DNA of 12,276 nucleotides from Nitrospinota bacterium (GTDB lineage: Bacteria > UBA8248). The stretch covers positions 1 to 12,276 of the forward strand of contig JASLZZ010000051.1 in assembly GCA_030754595.1 (NCBI GenBank), read 5' to 3'. The position numbers and the translations under genes are program-made. Every line of letters starts with the position of its first letter. Within the stretch, counting starts at the first letter, position 1. Under the pieces are notes generated by a model, which did not search any database, had not been told where the DNA came from, and saw only the letters and a program-made list of their open reading frames with translations. Below, in pieces: positions 1 to 12,276 of the stretch.

Positions 1-48
1 ACGTGCCGGTCGAAGCACCCGGATTAAGCATGTAGCCGGTTGCGTCCG

Positions 49-66
49 CTCCGCCTGACGGCGGAG
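49..66. repeat. Short perfect inverted repeat (hairpin)
   Basis: CTCCGCC-TGAC-GGCGGAG, 7-bp GC-rich stem with 4-nt loop. No U-tract on either strand, so not called a terminator. Confidence 0.45.
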
Positions 67-156
67 GAAGGTGGAAGGAAATGACCATGCAACTTTTTAA
101 ACCCTTTAGTCTTGAGCGAAGGCCAGAATCGGCAAGCCAGGATTATTATGTGCAAC

Positions 157-192
157 CTCGGATTAGGGATTATTCTCGGATTAGGGATTATT
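157..192 (+). repeat. Perfect 18-bp tandem duplication containing the likely RBS of the pentaheme cytochrome gene
   Basis: CTCGGATTAGGGATTATT at 157-174 and 175-192. AGGGA of the second copy (183-187) lies 8 nt before ATG 196. Confidence 0.9.
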
Positions 193-195
193 TCA

Positions 196-1986
196 ATGTT
201 CTGGCAACCGAAGTTACTATTCGCGATCATTCTATCGTTGGCAATGGCGGTCGCCAGCTCGGCGCAGGCACAAAAGGCCGATGACAAGGCGCCAGAGGAT
301 CAGTTTCGAAACAAGCAGTTCCCCTCGGCCTTCGAATGCAAACCCTGTCATGCGTTGCAGTTCCGCCAATGGTCCGCCTCGCCCCACGCCTATGCCAACC
401 TGAGCCCCGTCTTCGTCGCGGTCGAGAATCAGACCAAGGACAAGACCAACGGCACCTCGGGCACCACCTGTTCGCGGTGTCACGCGCCGTTGGCGGCGGT
501 GCTGGATGTGATGCAGATTTCCAACATGAAGCGGGCGCAATTTGCCCGCGAGGGCGAGGACTTCCTGGGTCCGGTGGTCGAAGGGATTACCTGCGTCGTC
601 TGCCATCGGTTCGACAAACGTTACGCCAAGCGAAGCGCCCGCGCGTTGATCACCGAAGGCGACATCTTCGCGCCGATTTTCGGGCCGACCAACAACGATA
701 TCCAGGCGGAAACCCAGAAGGACACCAGGTTGGCCCTGGTCACCGAGCCCGGCAAGAAGGGGCGGCCGATCCATAAGCGGGTCGAGCACTATCCGTTTCT
801 CCGGGCCTCGATCTTCTGCGGCAATTGCCATTCCTCCAGGCTGCCGACGGGATTCCACAACGAGGAAACCTTCGATGAGTATCGGACCTCGCCGTCCGCC
901 GTCGCCGGCGTAACCTGCCAGGATTGCCATATGGGCAAGGTGCCGGGCGAGGCCAAGGGCTTCGACAAAGGGCCCGCCGCAGTGATCGGCAAGACCGAAA
1001 CCAAGCACCGGCGCCTATCGAACCATTCTATGCCCGGCCCGGATTTCTCGGTGCTGCACCCCGGCATCTTCCCACACAATCAGGATGCGGTGAAGCTGGC
1101 CAACTACGAGCAATGGCTGCAGTTCGATCATGAAAAGGGCTGGGGCACGGACGAGTTCGAGGACAACGTCGCCGACGACCATAAGTTCCCGCAATTCTGG
1201 CAGGATCAGGATCTGCGCTACGAGGCCCGGGATATCCTGGACGAGCAATTCAAGACCTTGAACTATGCCAATGAGCAGCGTCTGGCGGTCATGAAAGCGG
1301 GCTACAAGGTCGAGGACTTCGTTGTCGAAAAGGCCAATCTGAGTGACGGCCTGAAGTTCAAGATCAAGCTCAGGAACGCGGTCCTCGGTCATAACGCGCC
1401 AACCGGCTTCATCCACGAAAGGATGGTATTTTTCCAGATCACGGTAACCGATAGCCGGGGCAATGTCGTCTTCCGCTCGGGAGACCGCGATCCGAACGGA
1501 GATTTGCGCGAGCGGCCGTCGCGATACGTGCGTGCCGGAAAGCTACCGCTGGATACGCAGCTTTTCAATTTGCAGAGCCATTTCATGGTCCATAATTTTT
1601 TCGGCGGCGAGCGCACGCAGCAACGGACCACTCCCTTCTCCAGGACGACCCGACCGTTCGTTCGACCGCCGATAAATCCGACTGCCATCCTCATGCGCCC
1701 CAACGGCACCCGCACCAAAAAGTCTGGAATTGAACCGGGCGGGTTCCGTTGGGCCGCCTACGAGGTCGATGGGGACAAACTGAAAGCCGGGGAAACCTAC
1801 ACCTTGCACATGAAGCTGATTGCTCAAGCGGAGCCGGCTTTCTTCATAGACGTCCAATCCAGTGCCGGCGTGGGGCTCGACTACAACTTCAGTTTGCGGG
1901 AGCTCACCAAGAGGGTGGTCGATGTAAGCATTGATATCTGGGAACAAACGCAAAGCGTGACAATCAAACAAGAAGGAGGCGTATGA
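196..1986 (+). CDS. Exported pentaheme c-type cytochrome (cytochrome c554/c552-related N-terminal domain plus large heme-free C-terminal region)
   Basis: Five CxxCH motifs (CKPCH, CSRCH, CVVCH, CGNCH, CQDCH) and a c554-family-like W-x2-S-x-H after heme 1. Start moved from 112 to in-frame ATG 196 because it has an SD-like AGGGA and gives a Sec signal (MFWQPKLLFAIILSLAMAVASSAQA). Confidence 0.88.
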   Translation: MFWQPKLLFAIILSLAMAVASSAQAQKADDKAPEDQFRNKQFPSAFECKPCHALQFRQWSASPHAYANLSPVFVAVENQTKDKTNGTSGTTCSRCHAPLAAVLDVMQISNMKRAQFAREGEDFLGPVVEGITCVVCHRFDKRYAKRSARALITEGDIFAPIFGPTNNDIQAETQKDTRLALVTEPGKKGRPIHKRVEHYPFLRASIFCGNCHSSRLPTGFHNEETFDEYRTSPSAVAGVTCQDCHMGKVPGEAKGFDKGPAAVIGKTETKHRRLSNHSMPGPDFSVLHPGIFPHNQDAVKLANYEQWLQFDHEKGWGTDEFEDNVADDHKFPQFWQDQDLRYEARDILDEQFKTLNYANEQRLAVMKAGYKVEDFVVEKANLSDGLKFKIKLRNAVLGHNAPTGFIHERMVFFQITVTDSRGNVVFRSGDRDPNGDLRERPSRYVRAGKLPLDTQLFNLQSHFMVHNFFGGERTQQRTTPFSRTTRPFVRPPINPTAILMRPNGTRTKKSGIEPGGFRWAAYEVDGDKLKAGETYTLHMKLIAQAEPAFFIDVQSSAGVGLDYNFSLRELTKRVVDVSIDIWEQTQSVTIKQEGGV

Positions 1987-3431
1987 TGTTTAAAAAGCTG
2001 ATCGGCATCGGGATCATCGCCGCCGTGGGGATGGTCGCCGGGATTACCGACCCCGCCCTGGCCCAGGATAAGGGCTTGCAGGAGACCCAGGATAAGGGCT
2101 TGCGGGATAAAGGCTTGGTGGATCGGGATCCTCTCCGCTACTCCGACGAGGTGAAGGGAATGAAAGAGGTGATAGAACGCCCCAAACCCCTCGTCGAATG
2201 GGGGCAGGGTTATCTCAAGCCGGGGCCCTATTGTTGCGAGTTCGAGCTTCCCACCGGAATGGTTATTTCGCCGAACCTCTTGATCTTCGGCAATTTTCGC
2301 ACCGGGCCGCAGGCCATCGATAACGGCGTCGACCCATCGAGCATCGAGTGGGTCAATACCTTCGACGTTTTCGCCAACCTGAGACTCACCGGAACGGAAA
2401 GAATCTTCTTCGGCATGTCTCCCCTCACGAAAAAGAGCGGCAGCAAGACGAGGTATGTTTTCCAGCCCGACGATACACTCGACACCGAGTTTAACGCCCG
2501 CTTAACCACCGCTTTTTTCGAGGGCGAGCTGAGCGAGATGTTTCCCAAGCTGGATTGGTTCGGCACAAAGCCTCATGATTGGGAAATTGCCGTCGGCCGC
2601 CAACCGGTCTTTATCCACGACGGCCTTCTCATCCAGGACACCATGGATTCCATTGCCATTACCCGCAGCACCGTTCCCTTACCGGGGACGCAATTCGCAC
2701 GCATTGGCGGCATCTTCGGTTGGGACGGCGTCAACAGGAGCAACAACAAAGAGGATACTGAAGCCTACCTATTAGGGCTGTTTTCCGCCATGGACGTGGG
2801 CCACCATACGTTGGATTTCGATATGGTCTATGTGGACAGCGATCAGGACCAGGGCGATCAGTTCAACATAGCCCTCGGGGCCACACAACGCATAATCCTG
2901 TTTAATACCCACTTCGACACCACATTCCGAATCGCCGGCTCCCTTGAGACGGACAACGAAACCAAAATCGCCGACGACGGCGCGTTGTTGTTTTCGAGTA
3001 TCGCGTTTGCGCCCCCAACCACCGATCCCTGGGATAACATCGCCTATGTCAATCTGTTCTTGGCGATCGATAGCTATAAAGTGGCATCCCGCAAATCCGG
3101 CGGACCGTTGGGACTGACCGGGCTTCTGTTCGCGGGCAACGGATTGGCCTCCTTTACGCCGATCAGCAATCAGGCCACCGAATCCTACGGCGGCGCAATC
3201 GGCTACCAGATGTTTTTCTCGCCGACGCAGCGCACCAACCTGATAATGGAAATTGGCGGCCGTAAGGATGACTCGCCCACCGGCTTCAACGCTTACGGCA
3301 TCGGGGCCAAGATATCGCAAGCGATCGGTCAGCACACCTTCGTCTCCCTGGACGTGTTCGGAATCAAGCAGGAAGGAAAAAAGCGGGATACACGCCACGG
3401 CTTGCGCAGCGAGTTGAATATCATCTTCTAG
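1983..3431 (+). CDS. Putative outer-membrane beta-barrel (porin-like) protein
   Basis: SD AGGAGG, ATGA overlap with the upstream stop, Sec signal ending ALA. Many alternating amphipathic strands rich in G/F/D, no internal TM helix, no CxxCH, and a C-terminal BamA-type strand ending in Phe (LRSELNIIF). Confidence 0.72.
   Translation: MMFKKLIGIGIIAAVGMVAGITDPALAQDKGLQETQDKGLRDKGLVDRDPLRYSDEVKGMKEVIERPKPLVEWGQGYLKPGPYCCEFELPTGMVISPNLLIFGNFRTGPQAIDNGVDPSSIEWVNTFDVFANLRLTGTERIFFGMSPLTKKSGSKTRYVFQPDDTLDTEFNARLTTAFFEGELSEMFPKLDWFGTKPHDWEIAVGRQPVFIHDGLLIQDTMDSIAITRSTVPLPGTQFARIGGIFGWDGVNRSNNKEDTEAYLLGLFSAMDVGHHTLDFDMVYVDSDQDQGDQFNIALGATQRIILFNTHFDTTFRIAGSLETDNETKIADDGALLFSSIAFAPPTTDPWDNIAYVNLFLAIDSYKVASRKSGGPLGLTGLLFAGNGLASFTPISNQATESYGGAIGYQMFFSPTQRTNLIMEIGGRKDDSPTGFNAYGIGAKISQAIGQHTFVSLDVFGIKQEGKKRDTRHGLRSELNIIF
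2062..2117 (+). repeat. In-frame short repeats at the mature N-terminus of the barrel protein (DKGL x3)
   Basis: CCCAGGATAAGGGCTTGC at 2062-2079 and 2086-2103 (24-bp period), then degenerate GGGATAAAGGCTTG at 2104-2117. Encodes QDKGLQETQDKGLRDKGL. Confidence 0.85.
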
Positions 3432-3542
3432 GACCCGCGTTAGGGGGGCCGTTTTTCCCCTGATCCCTTGCGCCTTGGCGTCCAATAGGGTTAAGCAAGC
3501 CGTCAAGGTAATGACCACAAATACTTAGTCGAGGAGGGAGTC

Positions 3543-4481
3543 GTGTCGGTTTCATCCATCGGACGCCAGGCTTTGCTATTGGCGATCATGATCGCGGCCT
3601 TCGCATGGACGTCATGGGCGATCGCCGAACCCTATTATCAGGGCCCGAAATCCTGTCAGGATTGCCACAAGGAGGAATACAAGGCCTGGGAGGAATCGAA
3701 GCACTTTACGTCCTACCGCACGGCGCACAAGGAGAAGGACGCGAAGAAGATCGCCAAAGCCGTGGGCGGCAAGAAGAACATGAAGCGGAACAAGAATTGC
3801 AAGGTCTGCCACTATTCGACCGAGCAGAAAAAGGCCGAGGACAAGCCCAAGGTGAAGTACGGCCCGTCCTGCGAACACTGTCACGGCGCCTCTTCCGAAT
3901 GGGAACCTATCCACGCCGACTATGGCGGCAAGGACGTCAAGCGGGAGGAGGAGACGCAGGACCACAAGGCCAAGCGGATCGCCGATTCCACTGCCACCGG
4001 GTTGGTCTGGGCCTCGATGACCTATGATATCGCGGTCAATTGCATGAAGTGCCATGGCTTGGCTCGCTCGGAAATCAGCGGCGAGGCCTTCGCCAAGATG
4101 CTGGAGGCCGGACATCCGATCAACCAATCCTTCGAGATCGTCATGTTCTCCCAGGGCAAGATGCGTCATTGGCTCAAGGAACGTTCGCCGCCGCGATTGG
4201 CCAATCTGTTTGTCGCCGGCCAGGCCGCGAAGCTGGTTTCCGCCACCGAGGCGGCGGCGAAGACCGAGGACGCCAAATACAAGGAGGCGCAAGTGAAGCG
4301 CGTCGCCGATGCCAAGGCCGTCCTGCGGGCTGTGCCCCAGGCGGCGGCGTTGATCAAATCGCCCAGCGACGCCAACGCTCGCAAGATAATGCAGGCGATC
4401 GGCCAGCAGGACCTCTCAGGCCTGGTCGGCGGACTGATCCCCTGCGCCGGCCCAGACAAGAAGAACCTGAGGCAGTGCTAG
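3543..4481 (+). CDS. Periplasmic tetraheme cytochrome c554-family protein with Ala/Lys-rich helical C-terminal extension
   Basis: Strong SD (GAGGAGGGAG 3531-3540), GTG start, signal peptide. Four CxxCH (CQDCH, CKVCH, CEHCH, CMKCH) with the c554-type pattern G-x3-CxxCH-x6-W-x4-H ... CxxCH ... CE-x-CHG ... CxxCH. Confidence 0.88.
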   Translation: MSVSSIGRQALLLAIMIAAFAWTSWAIAEPYYQGPKSCQDCHKEEYKAWEESKHFTSYRTAHKEKDAKKIAKAVGGKKNMKRNKNCKVCHYSTEQKKAEDKPKVKYGPSCEHCHGASSEWEPIHADYGGKDVKREEETQDHKAKRIADSTATGLVWASMTYDIAVNCMKCHGLARSEISGEAFAKMLEAGHPINQSFEIVMFSQGKMRHWLKERSPPRLANLFVAGQAAKLVSATEAAAKTEDAKYKEAQVKRVADAKAVLRAVPQAAALIKSPSDANARKIMQAIGQQDLSGLVGGLIPCAGPDKKNLRQC

Positions 4482-4503
4482 TGGTAGCCGTACGGCAATC
4501 TAT

Positions 4504-4542
4504 GCCAGGTCTAAGCCAAGGCTGCCTGGCTCAGACCTAGGC
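4504..4542. terminator. Imperfect stem-loop downstream of the tetraheme cytochrome gene (possible terminator or mRNA 3' stabiliser)
   Basis: GCC-AGGTCT-A-AGCCA ... TGGCT-C-AGACCT-A-GGC pairs over ~14 bp, starting 23 nt after the stop. No U-tract. Confidence 0.35.
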
Positions 4543-4560
4543 TGCGGACGCAGGCCCGAT

Positions 4561-4590
4561 TGTCATGCCCGGACTTGATCCGGGCATCCA
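4561..4590. repeat. REP-like palindromic element of the (C/T)GTC-tagged type common in Alphaproteobacteria
   Basis: TGTC-ATGCCCGGA-CTTGA-TCCGGGCAT-CCA: 9-bp perfect stem, 5-nt loop, GTC tag and CCA tail, resembling the GTCATG(G/C)CCGG..CCGG(G/C)CATCCA repeats of rhizobia and relatives (recalled, not searched). Confidence 0.75.
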
Positions 4591-4600
4591 CAAGCGCGGA

Positions 4601-4852
4601 CCACCGAATTTTCATTCTCTTGACGATTCTTCTCGCCTCTTTTCTTTGTGTCAGCTTCCGAAAACCCGAATAATGCTTCGTTTTTCTCCAAAACTCCGCG
4701 GCCGCCTTGTGGCATTCGCCGCAGGCCTTGGGGCCAGCCACGAACCTTGGATCCGGCGCCGCATCAGCCACCGACGGCATCCATACAACCCCGAAAACAA
4801 ATATCACCGAAAATACAACTCATCCCAGTCGGTTTCTGATGATTTCAATCAA
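4601..4852 (-). pseudogene. 5' fragment of a second cytochrome c554-family gene (nonsense codon plus 3' truncation)
   Basis: From TTG 4852 it reads MIEIIRNRLG*VVFSVIFVFGVVWMPSVADA-APDPRFVAGPKACGECHKAAAEFWRKTKHYSGFRKLTQRKEARRIVKRMKIR, aligning with GPKSCQDCHKEEYKAWEESKHFTSYRTAHKEKDAKKIAKAVG of 3543-4481. In-frame TGA at 4820-4822. Similarity ends at ~4604, before heme 2. Confidence 0.8.
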
Positions 4853-4904
4853 AGGCGTTGGACAATCTTTCCAGGCTTGAAGAAACTGCTGAAAAAGTCT
4901 CTTT

Positions 4905-5096
4905 TCAGGCCGCCAGCGGCCGAAGCAATGTATATTTGGGCATCCCCCGCCCGCTGGAGCCCCTCTCATACTTGGGCGCGATTCCACGCAAAGAAGCTTC
5001 TTCGACCCGGCGCCTTATGGCCCCTTGATCGAGCCGGATCACTTCCTGAAGCGTCTCGACGCACTCATCGACTTCCGCTTCGGCTTCTGTTGGCAT
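4905..5096 (-). CDS. Small hypothetical protein (63 aa) or gene remnant
   Basis: Co-oriented ORF filling the gap between the decaheme gene and the c554 fragment, with an acidic helical-looking N-half. No clear SD and no recognisable motif. Confidence 0.25.
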   Translation of the reverse strand: MPTEAEAEVDECVETLQEVIRLDQGAIRRRVEEASLRGIAPKYERGSSGRGMPKYTLLRPLAA

Positions 5097-5188
5097 CGGG
5101 ATTCACTTATGTTGGTCATTGATCGGTTAATGGCTGAAATATTCGCAAAACTCCCAAGGACCCAAATATCAGAACAAACAGGCCAGAA

Positions 5189-7297
5189 TTATTGGGATTT
5201 TTCCGGCATCCGCATGGGCGCGTTACTAAGCGCCGGTTTCACTTCGCCGATGTGGTAATTGTGGCAGGTGAGGCATTTATCCGAAGCCCCGTTCCGCGTG
5301 TGGCACGTGGTGCACACGGCCTTCGGTATGGGATGGAAGTTGCTCGCATAAGTAGCGGGATTTAAATCCTTGAAGCCGCCGAGATACTTCGCCCCCGAGT
5401 CGAGCCTGTGGCAGGTGAGACACCCCTTCTCGTCAAGCAGGTTGAAATGCGGGGCGTGCCGGTAGCGGGTAAAACCCCTGACGTTCATAGTGGGGCCCTT
5501 CGCCCGCCAGTTCACTCGCCGGACCTTTTCCCCGGCCCGGTCGACGCTGTGGCACTTGGCGCAAAGGCCGGGCGATTTTTTTCCTGAGAGGGACTTGAAC
5601 ATATCCCCGCGCGCGCCGCCCGAGGCCGCACCGCCCGAGGCCAGATCCAGCCACCCGCGAATGAAGCGGTCCTCATGACCCGTGGGCCGGTAGTAGAGGG
5701 TGAAATCCTGTTCGTACCATCCGCCCGCGACGCTCACTTCCTCGGGAAGGGGAAGCTCTTCGCCTTCTTTCTCTTCGGGCTCTTTTTCCCCTTCTTCCTT
5801 TTCCTTCCCGGGGGCCTCGCCATCCTTGCGCCGCTCGATTTCGGCGGAGAGCCCTGGGAACCAGGCGGCCATCGCCCCGCGCATCACCCCGACGGGTAGC
5901 TGCGCGCTCAGGCGGGAGAGCTCGGCGGCGCCGAGCGGGCGGGCCAGCGCTTTCTCGAGCCGGGCCTTGAGCGCTTTTTGACCGCCGGCAGCGATCTCGT
6001 GGACGAGCCCCTTGATTGCCCAGGCGAGGCGGCCAGCGGCCTTTCGTACATCGTCTTTCGCCTCGGCGAGGTCGAGAAGGTCGACGTCCTCGAGCGCCTC
6101 CTCGGCTTTTTTGAACTCCGAATCCGCCGATAGCAGAAGCCCGAGGAACGGAGTCAGCTCTTCCCCCTCGGCGTCCTGGGGCCAATGGCCTACATCGATC
6201 TTGGCTTTCTGGAGGCCCTCGGCATCGAGCCCCGGCAGGGTGATGAAGGGAATCCCCTTGGCGCCCGCGCTGCTCTCGCCGAGTATCTGCCCTTCGTGGC
6301 ATGCGGCGCAGGCCGACTCGAACCGCCGGGTCTTCATGTACGTTCCGGCCGGATCGGGAAGATGACAACTCTTGCAACTTGTGGGCGCGCGATTCTTCGC
6401 CTCACCCGTGAAATGTTTGTTCAGGTGAGAGGCGTGGTCGAATATCAGCCGCGTTCGCCGGCTATAGGGAAAACGCTTGAATTCAGGGTGATCCTCGCCA
6501 AGGCTCATGAAGCGCGCGGTGTGGCATGACTGGCAGCGCCGGGAATTCATTTCGGCCAAATCCGCACCTTTGCCACGGTGTTCCTGATGGCAGGTGGCGC
6601 ATGCGACGGTGCCCTCAGGCCCATGCCCACCTCTCAATCCAAGCGTGTCGGCCAGAAGCATGTCGATCGAATCCGGTTCGGCTTTTTGCTTTTGGGCGAT
6701 TCGCTCGCTGATCTGAACGAGCGATTGCGGGGATAAGCTGTGCGGCGAGCCGCTGTTATCGCCCAGGACATGGCACGACACGCACAGGCGGCTGTCCTTG
6801 GCGCCCGAATGCGGGGTAAACGCGGCGGCTAGCCACCCTGCGGGACCGCCTTCGAAAGTCGAATGACAATTTCCGCAGGAGCTGGCCGCCGTCTGATGCT
6901 GCGAGGTCAGGGCGCCGGGCGAGATGAACTCAGGGCCCGCGGGCCCGGCGATGAAGAGCAACACGAGCCCCAGCACAAAGAGCGCCGACCACCGGGAGAG
7001 AGCGCCGCGCCGCGCCCGGATGCTCATTACCGGCTGGCAGGGCGGAATCGGATGGCAGCATGTGCCATCGGGCAGCGGGCCCTGGGCACATCGGCCGCCA
7101 AACTCTTTCGACCGCGCACACGACCAGCGGTCCCTCTTATTGATGGGTGTGCATTCATGCCGGGCGATGCACCGTCCCCCGCCGTCCGGGCCGACATGGC
7201 AGGCCCGTCCTTCGGCGGCCCATCCGCAGACCCATTTCCCGCCGGGCCGGTCGTATTGCGACTGATCGAATTTGAAATTCTGGAACCACTTAATCAT
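5189..7297 (-). CDS. Membrane-anchored decaheme c-type cytochrome (c3/c7-like modules) with N-terminal Cys-rich domain
   Basis: Ten CxxCH (CGNCH, CVSCH, CATCH, CQSCH, CKSCH, CAACH, CAKCH, CLTCH, CTTCH, CLTCH), c3/c7-type distal-ligand motifs FDHASH and YRHAPH, and one TM helix (WSALFVLGLVLLFIA). Start moved to ATG 7297, which overlaps the upstream TGA (ATGA), giving 702 aa. Confidence 0.9.
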   Translation of the reverse strand: MIKWFQNFKFDQSQYDRPGGKWVCGWAAEGRACHVGPDGGGRCIARHECTPINKRDRWSCARSKEFGGRCAQGPLPDGTCCHPIPPCQPVMSIRARRGALSRWSALFVLGLVLLFIAGPAGPEFISPGALTSQHQTAASSCGNCHSTFEGGPAGWLAAAFTPHSGAKDSRLCVSCHVLGDNSGSPHSLSPQSLVQISERIAQKQKAEPDSIDMLLADTLGLRGGHGPEGTVACATCHQEHRGKGADLAEMNSRRCQSCHTARFMSLGEDHPEFKRFPYSRRTRLIFDHASHLNKHFTGEAKNRAPTSCKSCHLPDPAGTYMKTRRFESACAACHEGQILGESSAGAKGIPFITLPGLDAEGLQKAKIDVGHWPQDAEGEELTPFLGLLLSADSEFKKAEEALEDVDLLDLAEAKDDVRKAAGRLAWAIKGLVHEIAAGGQKALKARLEKALARPLGAAELSRLSAQLPVGVMRGAMAAWFPGLSAEIERRKDGEAPGKEKEEGEKEPEEKEGEELPLPEEVSVAGGWYEQDFTLYYRPTGHEDRFIRGWLDLASGGAASGGARGDMFKSLSGKKSPGLCAKCHSVDRAGEKVRRVNWRAKGPTMNVRGFTRYRHAPHFNLLDEKGCLTCHRLDSGAKYLGGFKDLNPATYASNFHPIPKAVCTTCHTRNGASDKCLTCHNYHIGEVKPALSNAPMRMPEKSQ
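5613..5642 (-). repeat. 15-bp in-frame tandem duplication (ASGGA x2) in the decaheme gene
   Basis: GCGCCGCCCGAGGCC followed by GCACCGCCCGAGGCC on the + strand, one mismatch. Confidence 0.7.
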
Positions 7298-8163
7298 GAG
7301 GCACCGATCGAAAACGCATAAACGACGGCCACATGCACGACCATCAGAATTAACAGGCACCAGGTCAGGGGGATGTGAAAAAAGAGCCAGCGCTTCAACA
7401 TCCCCTGAAGGGCGTATTGATAGTCCAGTTGATTTTTGATCCGGATGAGCTCGGTCAGCTCGGCGAGGACACTCAGCTCCTTCTCGCTCAGATACCGGCG
7501 AAGAACGAGCACGTCATTCAACAGCGCGTTGAGAGGGCGCCTCGACTCGATGTTATGCAGCCAAAAGTTCCTCGGCCCGGCGAAATAGGCGTGGAGTTTG
7601 TCGGCGTAAAAATCAGCGATGCTCGCGGACTTCGACTCTTCACCGGATTGAACCACCAGCGCTTCGACCTCCTCGCGGACCCGGAGGTAGAAAGCCGGCA
7701 GTCGCTCGTAAATCAACTCTTCCCCGAATTTTCGGCGAATTTCCCCGCCTTCCACCGCGCCCACCCGATCGTGCCGGGTGATTCGCGACGGATAGCCTTT
7801 CGAGATCCACAGACCCAGGGCGCCGCTCAGCGCCACCGCCAGATAGAGCATTGCCAACAGCGATTCGATAATCCCGTTCGGAATACGGAATTCGACATGC
7901 ACCAAGAACAGAAAAAACGTGAACCACCCGACGTATATATGAAGCTGCAGCCAGGCTGCGGATGAGCCCAGGGGGATGAACGACAGCTTCTTGCGGACAT
8001 TATACCCCGCCAGGAACACAATCGCGGCCAGAAGCGCCCACCCGCTCAAGTACTGGGAGCGGGAAAGGGTGACGGCGTAGGCCCGAAAAACAAAAAGCGC
8101 GACCGAGGAGACGATCACGAGCGCGGAGAGACTGAATAGGCGCCGGGCCGCGAATGTGATCAT
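7294..8163 (-). CDS. 5-TM inner-membrane protein, putative di-heme cytochrome b (ferric-reductase/NOX-like transmembrane domain)
   Basis: Start moved to ATG 8163 (ATGA overlap with upstream stop), giving 289 aa. Five hydrophobic segments, with H-x13-H in TM3 (LHIYVGWFTFFLFLVH) and TM5 (FHIPLTWCLLILMVVH). Confidence 0.75.
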   Translation of the reverse strand: MITFAARRLFSLSALVIVSSVALFVFRAYAVTLSRSQYLSGWALLAAIVFLAGYNVRKKLSFIPLGSSAAWLQLHIYVGWFTFFLFLVHVEFRIPNGIIESLLAMLYLAVALSGALGLWISKGYPSRITRHDRVGAVEGGEIRRKFGEELIYERLPAFYLRVREEVEALVVQSGEESKSASIADFYADKLHAYFAGPRNFWLHNIESRRPLNALLNDVLVLRRYLSEKELSVLAELTELIRIKNQLDYQYALQGMLKRWLFFHIPLTWCLLILMVVHVAVVYAFSIGAS

Positions 8164-9878
8164 CTGTTGATCCACTCCACGAGCATTTCCACATCGCGCA
8201 TGTCCACCCGCTTTAGCGCGTCGTGCGGGCAGGCCCGCTCGCAGGCGGGACCGCCGAGCTGATCCACGCACAAATCGCACTTCGTCGCCTTCTCGACCGG
8301 AACGTTCGTGCTCTGGGCCAGAATCAGCTCCCCACGCCCGTCCCGGATGGAAACCATGCGGATATTGTCGTACGGGCAGCTGTTAGCGCAGGTGACGCAG
8401 CCGATGCACGTCACGTCGTTAATCACCACCTGCCCCTGGTGCGATTCGCGGTGAATGGCGCCGGTCGGGCATCCGATCATGCAGACCGGATCGACGCAGT
8501 GCATGCAGGCGTTCGCAACGATGTAGTTTTGAAACCGCTTGCCGTGCCGTATAAAACGAGGATTGTTGTCGTGGGCGCTCGAGCAGGCGCGAACGCAATC
8601 GTCGCAACGCGTGCACCTGTCGATGTCGATAATCATGGCCGCCGTGCCGTTGATGTAGCGGTTGTCCGCCTGAAATTCCATGAAACCCGTGGCGATCTCC
8701 CCGCCCGAGCGTTCCCCCTTCCAGGCGGATTGCGCAAACCCGCGGGGAACGATTCTCGGCGGATACATCTCTTCGGAATAATGAGGCAGGACATATTTTT
8801 CGATAATCGACGTCGGCACCCGGAGGACGTCAATATAGCCCAGGGCGCGGAGGCTGCTCTGAAGGCTGACTTTCTCCTCGAAACGGTGGTTATGGGCGAT
8901 CTCGCCAAACCCGAACACCCCCCCCCGGCCCAGATAGCCGATCGTCCGCTGGCCGAAATCCACTCTTTCGGTGACATGAGCGAACCCGGCGCGGATCATG
9001 ATCAGCCCGTCAGCGTAATTGCCCTCCCCGGCGATGAGGGGCTCCTTTTCATAACGGTCGGCGGCCGACTGGCTGGCGATTTTCTTGTAGCTCGCATGCC
9101 AGTCGAATTCCCCGTAAGTTTCGAACAGTGTGTGCTCGGCGACGACGTCAATTTCTTCTTCGCTCAGGTTGCTGAACGCCGAGGTCGCCATGAGGTGAAC
9201 CTTCAGGCTCCGCTCGCGGTAAATCCGATCCACATAATTTCTGATTTCCTCCGCCCGCCGGCGAATGTCGCGAAGCCCCTGCCACCTGATTTCAAGCAGT
9301 ACGCAATCGTCCCGGGCGATAACGGTGGCGGTCCGGGGGGTTCGGCCCAGCGCGGCGATTTCGCCGAACATGGTCCCCTCTTCGAGGGAAACCGATTGAT
9401 GTATGTCGAGAAAAGCGGGCACGTCCTGGAGGAACACCCGCGCCTCCGTTCCTTCTCCCCGGATGTTGGTGCCGGAAGATTTTCCGTATTTCGATATGTC
9501 GCGGTACTCGGCCAAGGGGGAGTTGGACCATAGCTGTCTCAAGGATTGAAAAAATCCTTTTTCTCCGGATGCTTGGCGTCCGAGGGATTCGGTCCCGAGT
9601 TCGTCGAGAAAAACGGTGACCGAGCCTTCCATGATCAGAAAGGCGGAGTTTCCGTAGTCCCCCTCGCGCACCACGATCTCGTCGTCCGTGTAGCGCATGA
9701 CGCGCGTGTCGTTCAGGATGATATCGTGAAGGGAGGTCTTCGGCGGAAATTTGGAGGGGTCAATTTTATCGAAAGGCGGTTTGGTGAGCACCCAGTCCAC
9801 GTCCGCAGCAGTCATGTCGAGATCGAACGGCTCGTCCCAGCGCTGTGGCCTCTCGATGGCCGTGGGAGTCTGTGCCAT
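8160..9878 (-). CDS. Tandem cyclic-nucleotide-binding domains fused to a DmsB/NrfC-like 4x[4Fe-4S] ferredoxin
   Basis: CNB1: IVVREGDYGNSAFLIMEGSV...FGEIAALGRTPRTATV. Degenerate CNB2: EGNYADGLIMIRAG...LGRGGVFG. Sixteen Cys in four groups: CTRCDDCVRAC, CMHCVDPVCMIGCP, CIGCVTCANSCP, CDLC-x8-CERACP. SD-like AGGGG upstream. Confidence 0.9.
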   Translation of the reverse strand: MAQTPTAIERPQRWDEPFDLDMTAADVDWVLTKPPFDKIDPSKFPPKTSLHDIILNDTRVMRYTDDEIVVREGDYGNSAFLIMEGSVTVFLDELGTESLGRQASGEKGFFQSLRQLWSNSPLAEYRDISKYGKSSGTNIRGEGTEARVFLQDVPAFLDIHQSVSLEEGTMFGEIAALGRTPRTATVIARDDCVLLEIRWQGLRDIRRRAEEIRNYVDRIYRERSLKVHLMATSAFSNLSEEEIDVVAEHTLFETYGEFDWHASYKKIASQSAADRYEKEPLIAGEGNYADGLIMIRAGFAHVTERVDFGQRTIGYLGRGGVFGFGEIAHNHRFEEKVSLQSSLRALGYIDVLRVPTSIIEKYVLPHYSEEMYPPRIVPRGFAQSAWKGERSGGEIATGFMEFQADNRYINGTAAMIIDIDRCTRCDDCVRACSSAHDNNPRFIRHGKRFQNYIVANACMHCVDPVCMIGCPTGAIHRESHQGQVVINDVTCIGCVTCANSCPYDNIRMVSIRDGRGELILAQSTNVPVEKATKCDLCVDQLGGPACERACPHDALKRVDMRDVEMLVEWINR

Positions 9879-10011
9879 TGGCCCCTAATTTCTACAACGA
9901 GAAATGGTCAGCCTATTTCGCCTAGGCTTGAAAGTAACCGGTCCATGAGTGATCTGGAATCGCCATGTACATGTCAATTTCTTCGGTTTGGAAACACCGG
10001 ATAAGCATCCT

Positions 10012-11304
10012 TCAAGCATCCAGCGTCAGGTCTCCGTTGGGAGCAGAAATGCAAGTCAGGCAGGTGCCTGCCTCGGGAGCGGTCCCGGGTTCTTGAATGT
10101 AAGTCACCTGCCCCGATTTAATGGCCGTCACGCATGTTCCGCAATTTCCCGCCCGGCAACCCGAATCGATATTCACTCCGTTAGCTAGCGCGAAATCCAT
10201 AATCGAGCCGCTCGAAGTATCCCAAGGCAGGGTTTTGTTGCTCTTGGCGAAAACGATCTTGTGTTTGGGTCCCGCATCCGCCCCGTCCTTCTCGGTTTCG
10301 GCAGGCTCTTTCTTCACGCTGGCGGGGCCAAAGGCCTCGAAGTGGACATGGTTACCGGGCACACCCCATTTCTTGAGACCTTCGGTGAGAGACTTCATCA
10401 TGGGCGGCGGACCGCAGATATAAAAATCGTAGTTATTCGAGGGAAGGATTCGCTTGAACAAATCCACGCTGACCTGCTCGCCGTGCTGGTAATCCCTTCC
10501 TTCAACATCGTTGTCGGTGGGATCGCTGTAGCACACGTTCAGACGGATATTTTCATGTTCCAGGGTGAGATTATGGAGATGTTCCTTGAATATATGGTCC
10601 CTCTGGTTGCGCACCCCGAGGAAGAACCAAACCTCGCGATGCGATCTCGATTCGGCAATCGTGTTCAGCATGCTCAGAACCGGCGAGATGCCAATTCCGC
10701 CGCCGATGAGAACAATCGGGCTCTGCTGGGACGTATCCAGAAAAAAGTTTCCTCTCGGCGCCTTGACGTCGAGAATGTCGCCTTCGATAAGGGAGTCATG
10801 GAAAAAACTCGAGGCCACGCCCGGCGGGAGATCCGGTTTATCCCTCGGGGGGGGGACCTTCTTGATGGAAACGCGGTAGTAATCCGCATGTCCCGACCTG
10901 TCGGATAGAGAATAGCACCGGACAACCTCTTTTTCGGCATCCCGACCCCCTCCTTGGAAATGCAGGTTGAAGGTCAAAAACTGTCCGGGCTTGAAGGAGG
11001 GCAGGGGTTTGCCGTCATGGGGAGCGAGATAGAATGAGCAAACGCCGCCACCCTCGGGCACCTTGCGCTGAACGGTGAATTTCCGGTAGCCGGGCCAAGA
11101 AAACTCCGAGGACTGGACTTCCTTGAAAACCCCTTTGGCGATATCGACCTGGGTCTCCAGAAGTTCGAGGGCAAGATTTTGCTGGACGCTTTCACGCGAG
11201 TAACGGCGAAAGGATGTAACCAACAGGACCAAGACCTGCACCATGACCGCCGCGACGATCACCGCCCCGGCGGCCTGGAAGGCTGCGGGTGTCATGCGCT
11301 CCAT
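10012..11304 (-). CDS. Membrane-anchored FNR-type FAD/NAD(P)H oxidoreductase with C-terminal [2Fe-2S] ferredoxin (PDR/PaaE/Hcr-like domain order)
   Basis: FAD motifs PGQF, RCYSL, GVASSF. NAD motifs GGGIGISP, YICGPPPMM, HFEAFG. Plant-type Fe-S motif GCRAGNCGTC...CLTC. N-terminal hydrophobic helix followed by RRYSR. SD AAGGAGG. Confidence 0.92.
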   Translation of the reverse strand: MERMTPAAFQAAGAVIVAAVMVQVLVLLVTSFRRYSRESVQQNLALELLETQVDIAKGVFKEVQSSEFSWPGYRKFTVQRKVPEGGGVCSFYLAPHDGKPLPSFKPGQFLTFNLHFQGGGRDAEKEVVRCYSLSDRSGHADYYRVSIKKVPPPRDKPDLPPGVASSFFHDSLIEGDILDVKAPRGNFFLDTSQQSPIVLIGGGIGISPVLSMLNTIAESRSHREVWFFLGVRNQRDHIFKEHLHNLTLEHENIRLNVCYSDPTDNDVEGRDYQHGEQVSVDLFKRILPSNNYDFYICGPPPMMKSLTEGLKKWGVPGNHVHFEAFGPASVKKEPAETEKDGADAGPKHKIVFAKSNKTLPWDTSSGSIMDFALANGVNIDSGCRAGNCGTCVTAIKSGQVTYIQEPGTAPEAGTCLTCISAPNGDLTLDA

Positions 11305-11702
11305 GCCTCCTTTTCAGATTAGCCTTTTGGTGGAAAACCCACCCTCTCGGACAATCGGCTCATGAAACTCAGGCGATACGTGCCAAATTCCGCCGCTGAT
11401 CGATCAGAAATGAAATTATGCCGCAACGCTCTTCATTTAGCAAAATACGACCTATTTATCCTTATCAGCGGCCTTGTTGCACAATTCCAACTGTGGTCCG
11501 ATCCGTGCCATCTTAAATCACGCTTTACCGGATCCGGACGGAATCAGGCATCCCAATGCCCATCATTCAATTCAGCGTGGCACATTTCACCATTACTTCC
11601 ACATGTTGACTATCAGGCCCTCGAGCGGCGAGGCGCCCGCCAAACAGTGCCTTGAATCGTGAGAAGGCATTCTCCGCGAGACTCTGCCGGGTACACCCGC
11701 TT
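11305..11702 (-). promoter_or_regulatory. Relatively AT-rich upstream region, probable promoter of the minus-strand operon
   Basis: About 400 bp without a credible ORF in front of the first operon gene. Contains palindromes CTGATCGATCAG (11396-11407) and CCGGATCCGG (11528-11537). No convincing -35/-10 assigned. Confidence 0.4.
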
Positions 11703-12276
11703 GGCGTTGGTGCATGAATGGCGTCAGCCCTACGCTAGCATCGGCTCGCCCTCCCGATCAATCATGGAGGCTGAGGGGGCGACGCCATGGCCGCAGGGAA
11801 GTCGAGCCGAGTCAATCGCAAATACAAGACGAAGTACAGAATCCGGAACTGGGGAGAGTACGAGCGTGGCCTCAGGAGCCGTGGCGATGTCACAATCTGG
11901 CTGAGCCAGGAGGCGACCACCGCGTGGACACTACCGAATAACGGTCTCCGCGAGGCCAGCTACGGTACTCGAACCTCGCGATCTTGACCGCGTTGACGCT
12001 GCGGGTCCTCTTCCGCCTGCCGCTTCGCCAGACCGAGGGTTTCCTTGAATCGCTGCTCCGCTTGATGGGCCTCGACCTCAAGGCCCCGGACCACACCACA
12101 CTCTCGCGCCGGAACCAGACCGTTGAGGTGCCGCTCCTGACCCGAGTCCACGACGGCCCGATCTCCCTGGTCGTCGATTCCACGGGGCTCAAGATCCTGG
12201 GGTCCGGCGAGTGGAACGTGCACAAGTACAAGGCGTCGAGGAAACGCCGGGACTGGCGGAAGCTGCACATCGGAGT
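11703..12276 (+). mobile_element. IS5-family (IS903 group) insertion sequence, left part
   Basis: Candidate left IR GGCGTTGGTGCATGAA (11703-11718) resembles the IS903 end GGCTTTGTTGAATAAA as I recall it, and is followed by the transposase. The right end lies outside the window. Confidence 0.8.
11787..12276 (+). pseudogene. IS903-group DDE transposase, frameshifted at ~11952 and cut by the window edge
   Basis: First frame: YRIRNWGEYERGLRSRGDVTIWL. A shifted frame from 11954 continues GQLRYSNLAILTALTLRVLFRLPLRQTEGFLESLLRLMGLDLKAPDHTTLSRR...VVDSTGLKILGSGEWNVHKYKASRKRRDWRKLHIG, typical IS903-type motifs. Confidence 0.9.

Follow-up and report, generated by a model that had tools for sequence, protein, structure and literature searches.

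The stretch of DNA analysed here, which we call the window, is an entire contig (G000:C51) of 12,276 bases. It carries seven intact redox and envelope genes, three on the + strand and four on the − strand, and this set is a rearranged copy of the Ptd/PCC4 gene cluster; the system is already described, so the set is not new. As to its function, we tentatively favour, as possible if not quite probable, an export of electrons, fed by nicotinamide adenine dinucleotide (phosphate) (NAD(P)H), that crosses the inner membrane and ends at a pentahaem protein of the periplasm served by its own porin. Membrane-anchored PtdC would pass electrons from NAD(P)H via flavin adenine dinucleotide (FAD) to a [2Fe-2S] cluster. 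Cytoplasmic PtdE would relay them along four [4Fe-4S] clusters, a step that its two cyclic nucleoside monophosphate (cNMP) domains probably tune or gate. PtdE would dock on the cytoplasmic face of PtdF, whose two bis-histidine haems b would carry the electrons across the membrane. On the periplasmic side, the anchored decahaem cytochrome PtdG would collect them and the tetrahaem cytochrome PtdD would hand them to PtdA, which is of the c552/ExtKL pentahaem kind and would likely act as terminal reductase. PtdB, an outer-membrane channel of 18–20 strands, would let the small substrate or product of PtdA pass. The analysis itself shows the motifs with their conservation, the co-occurrence of the genes and the modelled interface of PtdE with PtdF; in this scheme we infer the outward direction, control by cNMP, a path free of any quinone step and the catalytic role of PtdA.

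We assign the genes to Ptd/PCC4 because they belong to the same seven families, because their order in relatives of the window matches the published one and because PtdF fits the PCC4 signature. A preprint (bioRxiv 10.1101/2023.11.21.568154) names the operon ptdABCDEFG and presents PtdA as a pentahaem cytochrome with a beta-sandwich, PtdB as a porin, PtdC as an FAD/NAD(P) oxidoreductase, PtdD as a tetrahaem cytochrome, PtdE as a cNMP-binding Fe-S protein, PtdF as a ferric-reductase-like membrane protein and PtdG as a decahaem cytochrome; it also reports high transcription of ptdAB. He et al. 2017 (Front Microbiol 8:1584, PMC5566968) describe the same cluster as PCC4. Its signature is a five-helix inner-membrane protein with two W-x3-H-x13-H motifs and an SGxxG motif, which these authors read as a dihaem cytochrome b. 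An earlier note on this DNA had proposed the genes as an undescribed conduit, and on this point it was mistaken, the cluster being in print under both names. The same note had asked whether the cluster matches an already characterised complex: described and named it is, and our literature search for later ptd/PCC4 work, which yielded these two papers and a single 2026 mention of PCC4, found no paper characterising the complex.

The ptdABCDEFG operon of the preprint comprises the same seven families in the canonical order of the window's relatives, and its hosts are marine or saline. With subgroup II of PCC4 the window set shares the porin and three multihaem cytochromes (4, 5 and 10 haems). 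It further shares a pfam13247 Fe-S gene placed upstream of the five-helix protein and, upstream of the tetrahaem cytochrome, one more redox gene; the hosts of this subgroup are marine Proteobacteria and Planctomycetes (PMC5566968). The terms 'cyclic nucleotide', 'FAD' and '2Fe-2S' are absent from the main text of that paper. The window differs from ptdABCDEFG in that the co-directional order A-B-C-D-E-F-G is split into two convergent modules, A-B-D on the + strand and C-E-F-G on the − strand, with A-B-D stemming from another lineage and a remnant of ptdD left behind. This order is a variant arrangement and not a different system.

Gene calls were based on an open reading frame (ORF) listing, Pfam and NCBIfam, with starts corrected by homology. 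With the corrected starts, ATGA stop/start overlaps were found between A and B, E and F, and F and G, and the CxxCH motifs numbered five in ptdA, four in ptdD and ten in ptdG. Every item in the earlier note's description of the seven intact genes (cofactor domains, haem counts, four histidines and beta-barrel) was correct.

The note had further asked whether the seven families are conserved together, and the gene neighbourhoods showed them to form one conserved unit. Loci were seeded with PtdE, the Fe-S protein, taking one genome per species, which gave 24 loci from Nitrospinota, Planctomycetota, Opitutales, Gammaproteobacteria, Gemmatimonadales and Myxococcota; the window proteins were mapped to these loci and to eight genome regions by reciprocal tblastn. 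One locus, L001 (15,567 bases), is identical in sequence with G004:C399, and the two were counted as one. PtdF followed the PtdE gene in 23 of the 24 loci and PtdG did so in 22, the misses being contig ends, and the E-F-G core was adjacent wherever the contig permits. PtdC was present in 17/24, PtdD in 14/24 and PtdA together with PtdB in 7/24. All seven genes stood on one strand in the order A-B-C-D-E-F-G in seven of the 24 loci; the same canonical order was seen in the genomes G003 and G004, which belong to the window's genus. Strong matches to PtdA (E<1e-100) and to PtdF (E<1e-90) occurred in the same 8 of 41 related genomes, a co-occurrence that is descriptive and not a test, since these genomes are kin.

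Beyond these loci, a search of 1.84 billion proteins with the PtdF profile yielded 525 cluster representatives at E<=1e-30, and Ptd/PCC4 hosts comprise marine nitrite oxidisers, Planctomycetes, Verrucomicrobia and Proteobacteria. Joined chains were encountered among the best 150 PtdF relatives, one of PtdE with PtdF (P0140, 843 aa) and one of PtdF with PtdG (P0118, 886 aa); they may be true fusions or gene calls merged across the ATGA overlaps. A scan of the flanks, covering 118 of 186 listed ORFs within 3.6 kb in 28 loci (three near-duplicates and the distant paralogue cluster L043 were dropped), revealed no further universally conserved partner gene.

At the cytoplasmic end of the proposed path, PtdC matched the Pfam families FAD_binding_6, NAD_binding_1 (E 1e-20) and Fer2 (E 7.9e-10). 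It also matched the reductase part of the flavohaemoprotein model NF009805 (E 1.3e-73, below that family's cut-off). A hydrophobic N-terminal anchor was present in 18/18 aligned homologues, together with a conserved R-C-Y-S-L-S motif, a partly invariant GGxGxxP loop and the cluster-cysteine segments G-C-R...C-G-T-C and C-L-T-C. PtdE matched Fer4_11 (PF13247, E 5.2e-10), and the 16 cysteines of its four CxxCxxCxxxC-type motifs were invariant in all 22 sequences. PtdE should therefore hold four [4Fe-4S] clusters and not two, the number given in the preprint. Sequence analysis revealed no signal peptide in PtdE.

The cNMP part of PtdE was matched by the Pfam cNMP_binding family in three stretches, with 75.4 bits against a cut-off of 27.5 (E 3.6e-21). 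In the phosphate-binding cassette of the first domain, F171-G172-E173 was found in 25/25 sequences, R182 and A184 each in 23/25 and T/S183 in 22/25. The second domain retains G323, E326 and R344 around a longer loop. The cassette, FGE...R-[ST]-A, is by its sequence of the canonical CAP/CNB (PF00027) type, and the binding of a cNMP is putative. In one Planctomycete subclade, each of the five loci has an orthologous gene for a class III nucleotide (adenylate/guanylate) cyclase (PF00211) lying upstream of ptdC and divergent from it. These loci are kin and reflect the linkage of a single lineage, kept across 47–59% protein identity. The window's genome has two PF00211 cyclases elsewhere. The cyclase linkage and the conserved cassette fit a possible gating by a cyclic nucleotide, as the earlier note had suggested, and lend this idea support.

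PtdF is the centre of the inner-membrane half. Its AlphaFold2 model (predicted local distance difference test, pLDDT, 85.8) showed five membrane helices, as expected from the note's description of a five-helix protein with four histidines, with a helical domain of some 110 residues separating helix 4 from helix 5. According to the positive-inside rule, this domain and the loops preceding helices 3 and 5 should face the cytoplasm. The PCC4 signature was found as W71-x3-H75-x13-H89 in helix 3, W259-x3-H263-x13-H277 in helix 5 and S113-G114-x2-G117 in helix 4. The four histidines H75, H89, H263 and H277 as well as W71, W259, G114 and G117 were invariant in 22/22 sequences, and S113 was conserved in at least 90%.

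The family of PtdF is less clear-cut. Pfam gave no match at E<=0.01. Below threshold, DUF4405 matched 18 of 22 members, Ni_hydr_CYTB 10/22 and Ferric_reduct 8/22; against the last family (PF01794) the window protein scored 12.6 bits (cut-off 28) and the best member reached E 5.5e-4, short of the threshold. PtdF does show the arrangement expected of ferric reductases, namely two histidine pairs, each 13 residues apart, on helices 3 and 5. As regards the six-helix fold of the ferric reductase domain (FRD), the PtdF model had no Foldseek match in the PDB at E<=0.001, and a wide VIA-align search gave only generic helical bundles among the matches listed (best Z 10.9), for which reason we make no claim on the fold. 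A weak likeness to the dihaem cytochromes b CybB (5OC0, Z 8.2) and HyaC (4GD3, Z 7.8) lay within the noise range of helical bundles. PtdF putatively acts like a dihaem cytochrome b; membership in the ferric reductase family is not supported by the profile threshold.

A contact between PtdE and PtdF was predicted by complex modelling. The full-length proteins were modelled with 22-row alignments, with two haems included in the job and with three controls. The interface score ipSAE (interaction prediction score from aligned errors) was 0.66 (runs 0.69, 0.66 and 0.66) versus 0.00 for the best of the three controls; the mark of 0.66 was reached by 116 of 157 solved complexes and by 2 of 215 mismatched pairs, a calibration that is approximate for this job. 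The runs shared at least 91% of contacts, with a pLDDT of at least 79 for the partner. The modelled contacts joined PtdE residues 419-435 and 537-554, which hold the first and fourth cluster motifs, to PtdF residues 58-72, 121-129, 149-152 and 253-257; in the model these are the cytoplasmic loops flanking His75 and His263. The cluster of C422, C425, C428 and C550 is predicted to lie beside the haem of H75 and H263. The end clusters of PtdE are thus predicted to dock on the cytoplasmic face of PtdF, in the geometry expected for electron transfer from cluster to haem. The relay proposed in the earlier note, from FAD and [2Fe-2S] over four [4Fe-4S] clusters and a bis-histidine dihaem b to haems c, fits the conservation of these motifs, and the interface that it had asked to be checked by modelling was indeed predicted for this pair. 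This relay is the best-supported mechanism for the inner-membrane half.

On the periplasmic side of the membrane, PtdG carries its ten CxxCH motifs at residues 141-330 and 579-675, as six plus four haems with a variable linker of about 250 residues between them. A single anchor helix was located at residues 99-117. The preceding residues 1-98 form a domain of about 90 residues with eight cysteines arranged as two four-cysteine repeats. PtdG was given as periplasmic in the preprint, whereas the protein seen here is anchored and has this domain in the cytoplasm. C24, C33, C43, C49, C60, C70, C80 and C87 were invariant in 18 of 23 aligned sequences, those which match the domain motif. The domain was lacking in the other five, which belong to one Planctomycete subclade and are the same loci that have a cyclase next to ptdC. 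No meaningful Pfam match was obtained at E<=10 with four such N-terminal domains, and an ESM Atlas search with residues 1-125 gave no usable match. The eight-cysteine domain is not mentioned in the available passages of the ptd preprint and the PCC4 paper.

The direction of electron flow is not fixed by the sequence. Electrons that leave the negative side of a membrane for its positive side are helped by the membrane potential, and NAD(P)H is a low-potential donor. We favour outward flow because a pyridine-nucleotide flavoprotein and a ferredoxin-like relay stand on the cytoplasmic side, because the membrane potential would assist it and because the reverse path would be uphill without a coupling device. 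The opposite flow would have PtdA, PtdD and PtdG oxidise extracellular or periplasmic donors such as Fe(II), Mn(II) or reduced sulfur, and PtdF pass the electrons to quinone or, via PtdE and PtdC, to NAD(P)+. This follows the PCC4 model and we consider it unlikely. PCC4 was seen in Zetaproteobacteria, in other genomes of iron oxidisers and in metal-oxidising filter communities, and hydrogenase cytochrome b and similar dihaem proteins exchange electrons with quinones (PMC5566968), to which the weak likeness of PtdF to 5OC0 and 4GD3, inside the noise range, may be added. The hosts also include chemolithoautotroph lineages in need of reducing power (bioRxiv 10.1101/2023.11.21.568154). Inward flow would, however, run against the membrane potential. 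Electrons taken from Fe(II), Mn(II) or nitrite would have to go strongly uphill to reduce NAD(P)+, while the set contains no proton-coupled component, and a path from donor to quinone would leave a cytoplasmic FNR-type flavoprotein and a four-cluster ferredoxin without a role. Many hosts, moreover, are aerobic heterotrophs (Roseimaritima, Mariniblastus, Opitutales).

At the outer end of the proposed export stands PtdA. The protein has 596 residues (about 570 in the mature form), five haems, hence about 115 residues per haem, and a C-terminal immunoglobulin-like (Ig-like) domain. A profile built from eight homologues matched the pentahaem cytochrome c552 of T. tepidum (PDB 5ZE8) with E 3.7e-13. 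The alignment ran over two stretches, the haem cap and the beta-sandwich, and included the GH..PTG strand of the C-terminal domain. A PDB search with the single sequence returned nothing at E<=0.01, and the ExtKL model NF040886 gave a weak 40.1 bits (cut-off 250). By this profile match PtdA is a relative of cytochrome c552 (5ZE8), and a more distant kinship to ExtKL is weakly indicated. The only invariant cysteines in the eight PtdA sequences were the ten of the haem motifs. Four histidines outside these motifs, H64, H193, H277 and H399, were invariant too, H399 lying in the GH..PTG strand of the Ig-like domain. In canonical PtdA proteins (L004, L008, L010 and others), the signal peptide is followed by acidic repeats rich in Asp, Leu and Gly, of the DDLLGGDLL type; these repeats are lacking in the A2 protein of the window.

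ExtKL offers an instructive parallel. In ExtHIJKL of Geobacter sulfurreducens, a protein with a pentahaem cap and an Ig-like domain is encoded beside a porin gene, as in ptdA-ptdB. Encoded next to the porin ExtI, ExtKL was long taken for a part of a porin-cytochrome conduit (PMC11976967). It is the same protein as MccSep, which was shown to be a periplasmic polysulfide reductase where a loop from the Ig-like domain reaches to the pocket on the distal side of haem 2 with its His/Cys ligation; a haem-ligating Cys and a Sec/Cys in the Ig-like loop are strictly conserved in the family (PMC13510729). PtdA differs in having neither of these and in having an invariant His in GH..PTG instead. Since the defining Cys and Sec/Cys are missing, we rule out that PtdA is a polysulfide reductase of the MccSep type.

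PtdB had no Pfam or NCBIfam match. It has a signal peptide and a C-terminal Phe, and its AlphaFold2 model of 482 residues (mean pLDDT 69.5) contained 19 long strands according to DSSP. The top Foldseek matches in the PDB were C. jejuni MOMP (E 4.3e-11), BenF-like and OprD/Occ porins, chitoporin and AlgE; the top 48 matches listed were all substrate channels, with no MtrB among them, and the nearest structures have 18 strands. PtdB thus models as a substrate channel of 18–20 strands rather than as an MtrB-like sheath. The MtrB barrel has 26 strands. About 115 residues per haem suggest a PtdA built like an enzyme and not like a wire. Together with a channel-like PtdB, this leads us to prefer a reading in which PtdA is a terminal protein in the periplasm and PtdB the channel for its substrate or product.

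The same outward path through the inner membrane could instead end in a true trans-outer-membrane conduit of PtdA and PtdB, of the MtrAB, PioAB or Pcc kind, that delivers electrons to extracellular acceptors such as Fe(III), Mn(IV) or O2. The two genes are coupled by an ATGA overlap and stand together in 7/7 canonical loci, both the preprint and He et al. 2017 read them as a porin-cytochrome complex, and a haem peroxidase downstream of ptdG in locus L014 hints at extracellular oxidant chemistry. We nevertheless judge such a conduit improbable. A large barrel sheathing a slim, haem-dense cytochrome, as in MtrAB and PioAB, was not what we found: PtdB has about 19 strands and resembles substrate channels, and PtdA, with five haems in 596 residues and an Ig-like domain, has the c552/ExtKL build and not that of a slim MtrA-like wire. 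ExtKL itself, once thought to be part of a conduit, proved to be a periplasmic reductase (PMC13510729). The analogy with MtrAB and PioAB drawn in the earlier note is accordingly its weakest part, PtdB being like OprD/Occ, AlgE and MOMP and PtdA being a pentahaem protein of an enzyme type.

Another question is how the two modules of the window came together. ptdC (87% DNA identity) and ptdE-F-G (72%) were colinear with L001, and ptdD is gone from its place between ptdC and ptdE (9879-10011). A piece of 278 bases at 4604-4881, containing the C-D spacer and the 5' end of ptdD, was 87% identical in DNA to L001 7638-7915. The first 68 residues of this remnant, which now lies downstream of ptdG, were 81% identical to PtdD of L001. 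Homology with L001 ends at 11412 and is followed by a dispersed repeat of about 58 bases and by IS5 pieces. The 50-59 bases after 11412 are repeated elsewhere in this genome, on contigs C27, C100, C26 and C5, as well as at L035 12114-12163 and upstream of ptdA in G014; the repeat may be a recombination point or the end of a mobile element.

The two modules also differ in lineage. The A, B and D proteins of the window were 87%, 74% and 85% identical to those of an A-B-D module in G014, a genome of another genus, versus 31-46% to the copies in the same-genus genomes G003 and G004 (44-46% for PtdA; PtdD was 31-36% identical to the canonical PtdD copies). The C, E, F and G proteins were 62-89% identical to the same-genus copies. 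DNA homology with G014 stops exactly at the stop of the ptdD-type gene, at position 4482, and in G014, too, C-E-F-G lacks D and lies on a contig apart from A-B-D. We conclude from these comparisons that a diverged A-B-D module replaced the canonical A, B and D, with the original ptdD deleted and its 5' end and upstream spacer relocated.

Fourteen sequencing runs hold at least half of the sampled words of window positions 3000-6000. In the DNA run X4, a contig of 1756 bases spans 4421-6176 with no differences and with the depth of the right-hand part, by which assembly chimerism was ruled out as the main cause of the junction. Contig depth in X4 and X8 was about 42-137 on 1-4510 versus 2-18 on 4511-11480, and a second sequence continues from 4483, beginning with a hairpin-like stretch. 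The gap in depth and the other continuation indicate that A-B-D is also present, next to a different neighbour, in populations of higher abundance. RNA-library contigs of the seawater run X16 covered 1-4376, and one of 2213 bases ran from ptdA across ptdB into ptdD; such contigs document presence in the library and neither a single transcript nor a level. No X16 contig fell on 5331-11480 and X15 gave short pieces only, and these contigs are uninformative on absence or expression level.

These features might be taken to mean that A-B-D and C-E-F-G are independent systems, placed side by side through rearrangement or a chimeric assembly. In favour of this, the modules run towards each other and are unlike in lineage and in contig depth as given above, the contig is flanked by the dispersed repeat and IS5 pieces, and the genome bin has an estimated contamination of 6.4%. 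Against this, the X4 contig spans the junction, a second genus (G014) shows the same split into C-E-F-G without D and A-B-D, strong PtdA and strong PtdF occur in the same related genomes, and both modules share one operon in 7/24 loci. We regard independence as very improbable. The picture is rather one of two exchangeable modules of one system, an inner-membrane module (C-E-F-G) and a periplasmic/outer module (A-B-D), which fits PtdD working with PtdA and PtdB.

Several points speak against NAD(P)H-fed export. Quinones are frequent reaction partners of dihaem b proteins, and PtdF may conceivably have a site for them. The fold search with PtdF yielded generic helical bundles only. The score of the PtdE-PtdF complex is the model's own confidence, and its own alignments and the included haems set the job apart from the calibration set. 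The PtdB model is moderately confident, and the barrels of Geobacter porin-cytochrome complexes are reported to have about 20 strands, so a sheath role for PtdB is still conceivable. No PtdC was found within 10 kb in L015, L017 and L021, where full flanks were at hand. PCC4 subgroup I is without the Fe-S gene (PMC5566968), and taken together these two observations imply that the NAD(P)H/Fe-S input is not universal. The separation of A-B-D in G014 and its roughly five-fold deeper contigs in seawater metagenomes, where other sequence lies downstream of it, suggest that this module may take electrons from elsewhere. The PCC4 model, hypothetical as it is, runs the electrons the other way, taking them from an extracellular donor and passing them to the quinone pool (PMC5566968). 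Both papers treat the function as unknown or hypothetical, the preprint stating that it "remains completely unknown" (bioRxiv 10.1101/2023.11.21.568154; PMC5566968).

The features of the window are collected in the following table, together with the cyclase genes of the Planctomycete subclade. The IS5 fragment has copies of 92-93% identity on contig C49 of the same genome. Rfam gave no match at gathering score over the whole window, and a scan of 4300-5300 for promoters and terminators was no better than shuffles.

Table. Genes and other features of the window, and cyclase genes beside ptdC in other loci
Feature	Position	Strand	Description
ptdA-type ('A2', diverged lineage)	196..1986	+	secreted pentahaem cytochrome c, C-terminal Ig-like beta-sandwich
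ptdB-type ('B2')	1983..3431	+	outer-membrane beta-barrel, about 18-20 strands (model)
ptdD-type ('D2')	3543..4481	+	secreted tetrahaem c554-like cytochrome; 4 CxxCH, Cytochrome_C554 E 1.2e-10
remnant of original ptdD	4604..4881	-	spacer and first 68 codons, inside ORF 4511-4807
ptdG	5189..7297	-	membrane-anchored decahaem cytochrome c with N-terminal cytoplasmic eight-Cys domain
ptdF	7294..8163	-	five-helix inner-membrane protein, putative dihaem cytochrome b
ptdE	8160..9878	-	cytoplasmic; two cNMP-binding domains and DmsB/NrfC-type four-cluster ferredoxin domain
ptdC	10012..11304	-	membrane-anchored FNR-type NAD(P)H/FAD reductase, C-terminal plant-type [2Fe-2S] domain
short dispersed repeat	11413..11470		where homology to the canonical operon stops; ptdB expected there
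IS5-family transposase fragment	11984..12274	+	runs off contig end; DDE_Tnp_1_5 E 8.4e-25, NF033579 IS5 E 5.3e-31
cyclase beside ptdC (other loci)	L013 5541-7274; L014 ~5634-7349; L018 2473-4458; L022 5506-7419; L024 1-1584	- (all)	PF00211

Three further loci deserve mention. The distant paralogous cluster L043 (G008:C2, 5341-10495) encodes a c554-like and an FNR-like protein, a cNMP/Fe-S protein (36% identity), a five-helix protein (34%) and a shorter decahaem cytochrome (29%), with neither a pentahaem protein nor a barrel close by. In L039 (G010:C1), ptdA (13420-15069) and ptdC (10459-11738) each lie in several out-of-frame pieces with internal stops, which may be broken genes or sequencing errors. 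The peroxidase gene of L014 (15488-17179, +) is directly downstream of ptdG, encodes an animal-type haem peroxidase (PF03098, E 6e-144) and was found at this locus only.

Ptd/PCC4 is widespread and mechanistically unusual, and the cluster itself is not new. Beyond the ptd and PCC4 papers, the present analysis adds the four cluster motifs and the canonical cassette of PtdE, the four invariant histidines of PtdF, the modelled dock between PtdE and PtdF, the eight-cysteine domain of PtdG, the channel-like model of PtdB, and the kinship of PtdA to cytochrome c552 (5ZE8) together with its enzyme-like haem density. If NAD(P)H export without quinones and under cNMP control is true, redox chemistry in the periplasm or outside the cell would have a new route in oceans that are oxic or low in oxygen, and the chemistry concerned could be that of iron, nitrogen oxides, sulfur species or reactive oxygen. 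A bolder version, which we put forward as speculative and rather doubtful, would see in Ptd a second-messenger-gated, quinone-independent exporter from NAD(P)H to the periplasm and a bacterial counterpart of NADPH oxidase made of several subunits, with an Fe-S relay switched directly by cyclic adenosine or guanosine monophosphate (cAMP/cGMP). PtdA would then be a new periplasmic pentahaem enzyme powered by this export, with PtdB as the dedicated porin through which its small substrate enters, the exchangeable A-B-D module would set the substrate specificity, and the eight-cysteine domain of PtdG would be a further metal or redox site of the complex.

Compared with known systems, PtdE shares the four cysteine motifs of DmsB/NrfC-type ferredoxins; in contrast to the NrfC and DmsB partners, an export signal is missing, and PtdE is presumably cytoplasmic. 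The Tmc, Hmc and DsrMK complexes of sulfate reducers combine periplasmic multihaem cytochromes c, a membrane dihaem b and a cytoplasmic Fe-S protein for electron exchange across the membrane. Ptd is alike in architecture. These complexes differ from Ptd in their HdrD-like partner, in an inward flow to sulfur metabolism and in having no flavoprotein, cNMP domain or outer-membrane part. In MtrCAB, PioAB/MtoAB and the Geobacter Pcc systems, a multihaem cytochrome gene adjoins a barrel gene and extra periplasmic multihaem cytochromes are present, as in Ptd. The Ptd barrel, in contrast, is much smaller than MtrB, the adjoining cytochrome is haem-poor and globular, and electrons do not enter by way of a CymA/NapC-type quinol dehydrogenase.

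The inner-membrane half is best compared with the NADPH oxidase/ferric reductase family and with Fre-MsrQ of E. coli, where electrons pass from NAD(P)H over a flavin and two stacked bis-histidine haems b to an outside acceptor. Ptd shares this logic of NOX, FRE and MsrQ, including the histidine pairs of helices 3 and 5, the two members of each pair being spaced by 13 residues. PtdF departs from these proteins in its five helices and its cytoplasmic domain of about 110 residues, and no FRD structure was among the fold matches listed. Ptd further differs in that the flavin module is a separate protein and that a four-cluster cNMP/Fe-S protein is interposed between flavin and haems.

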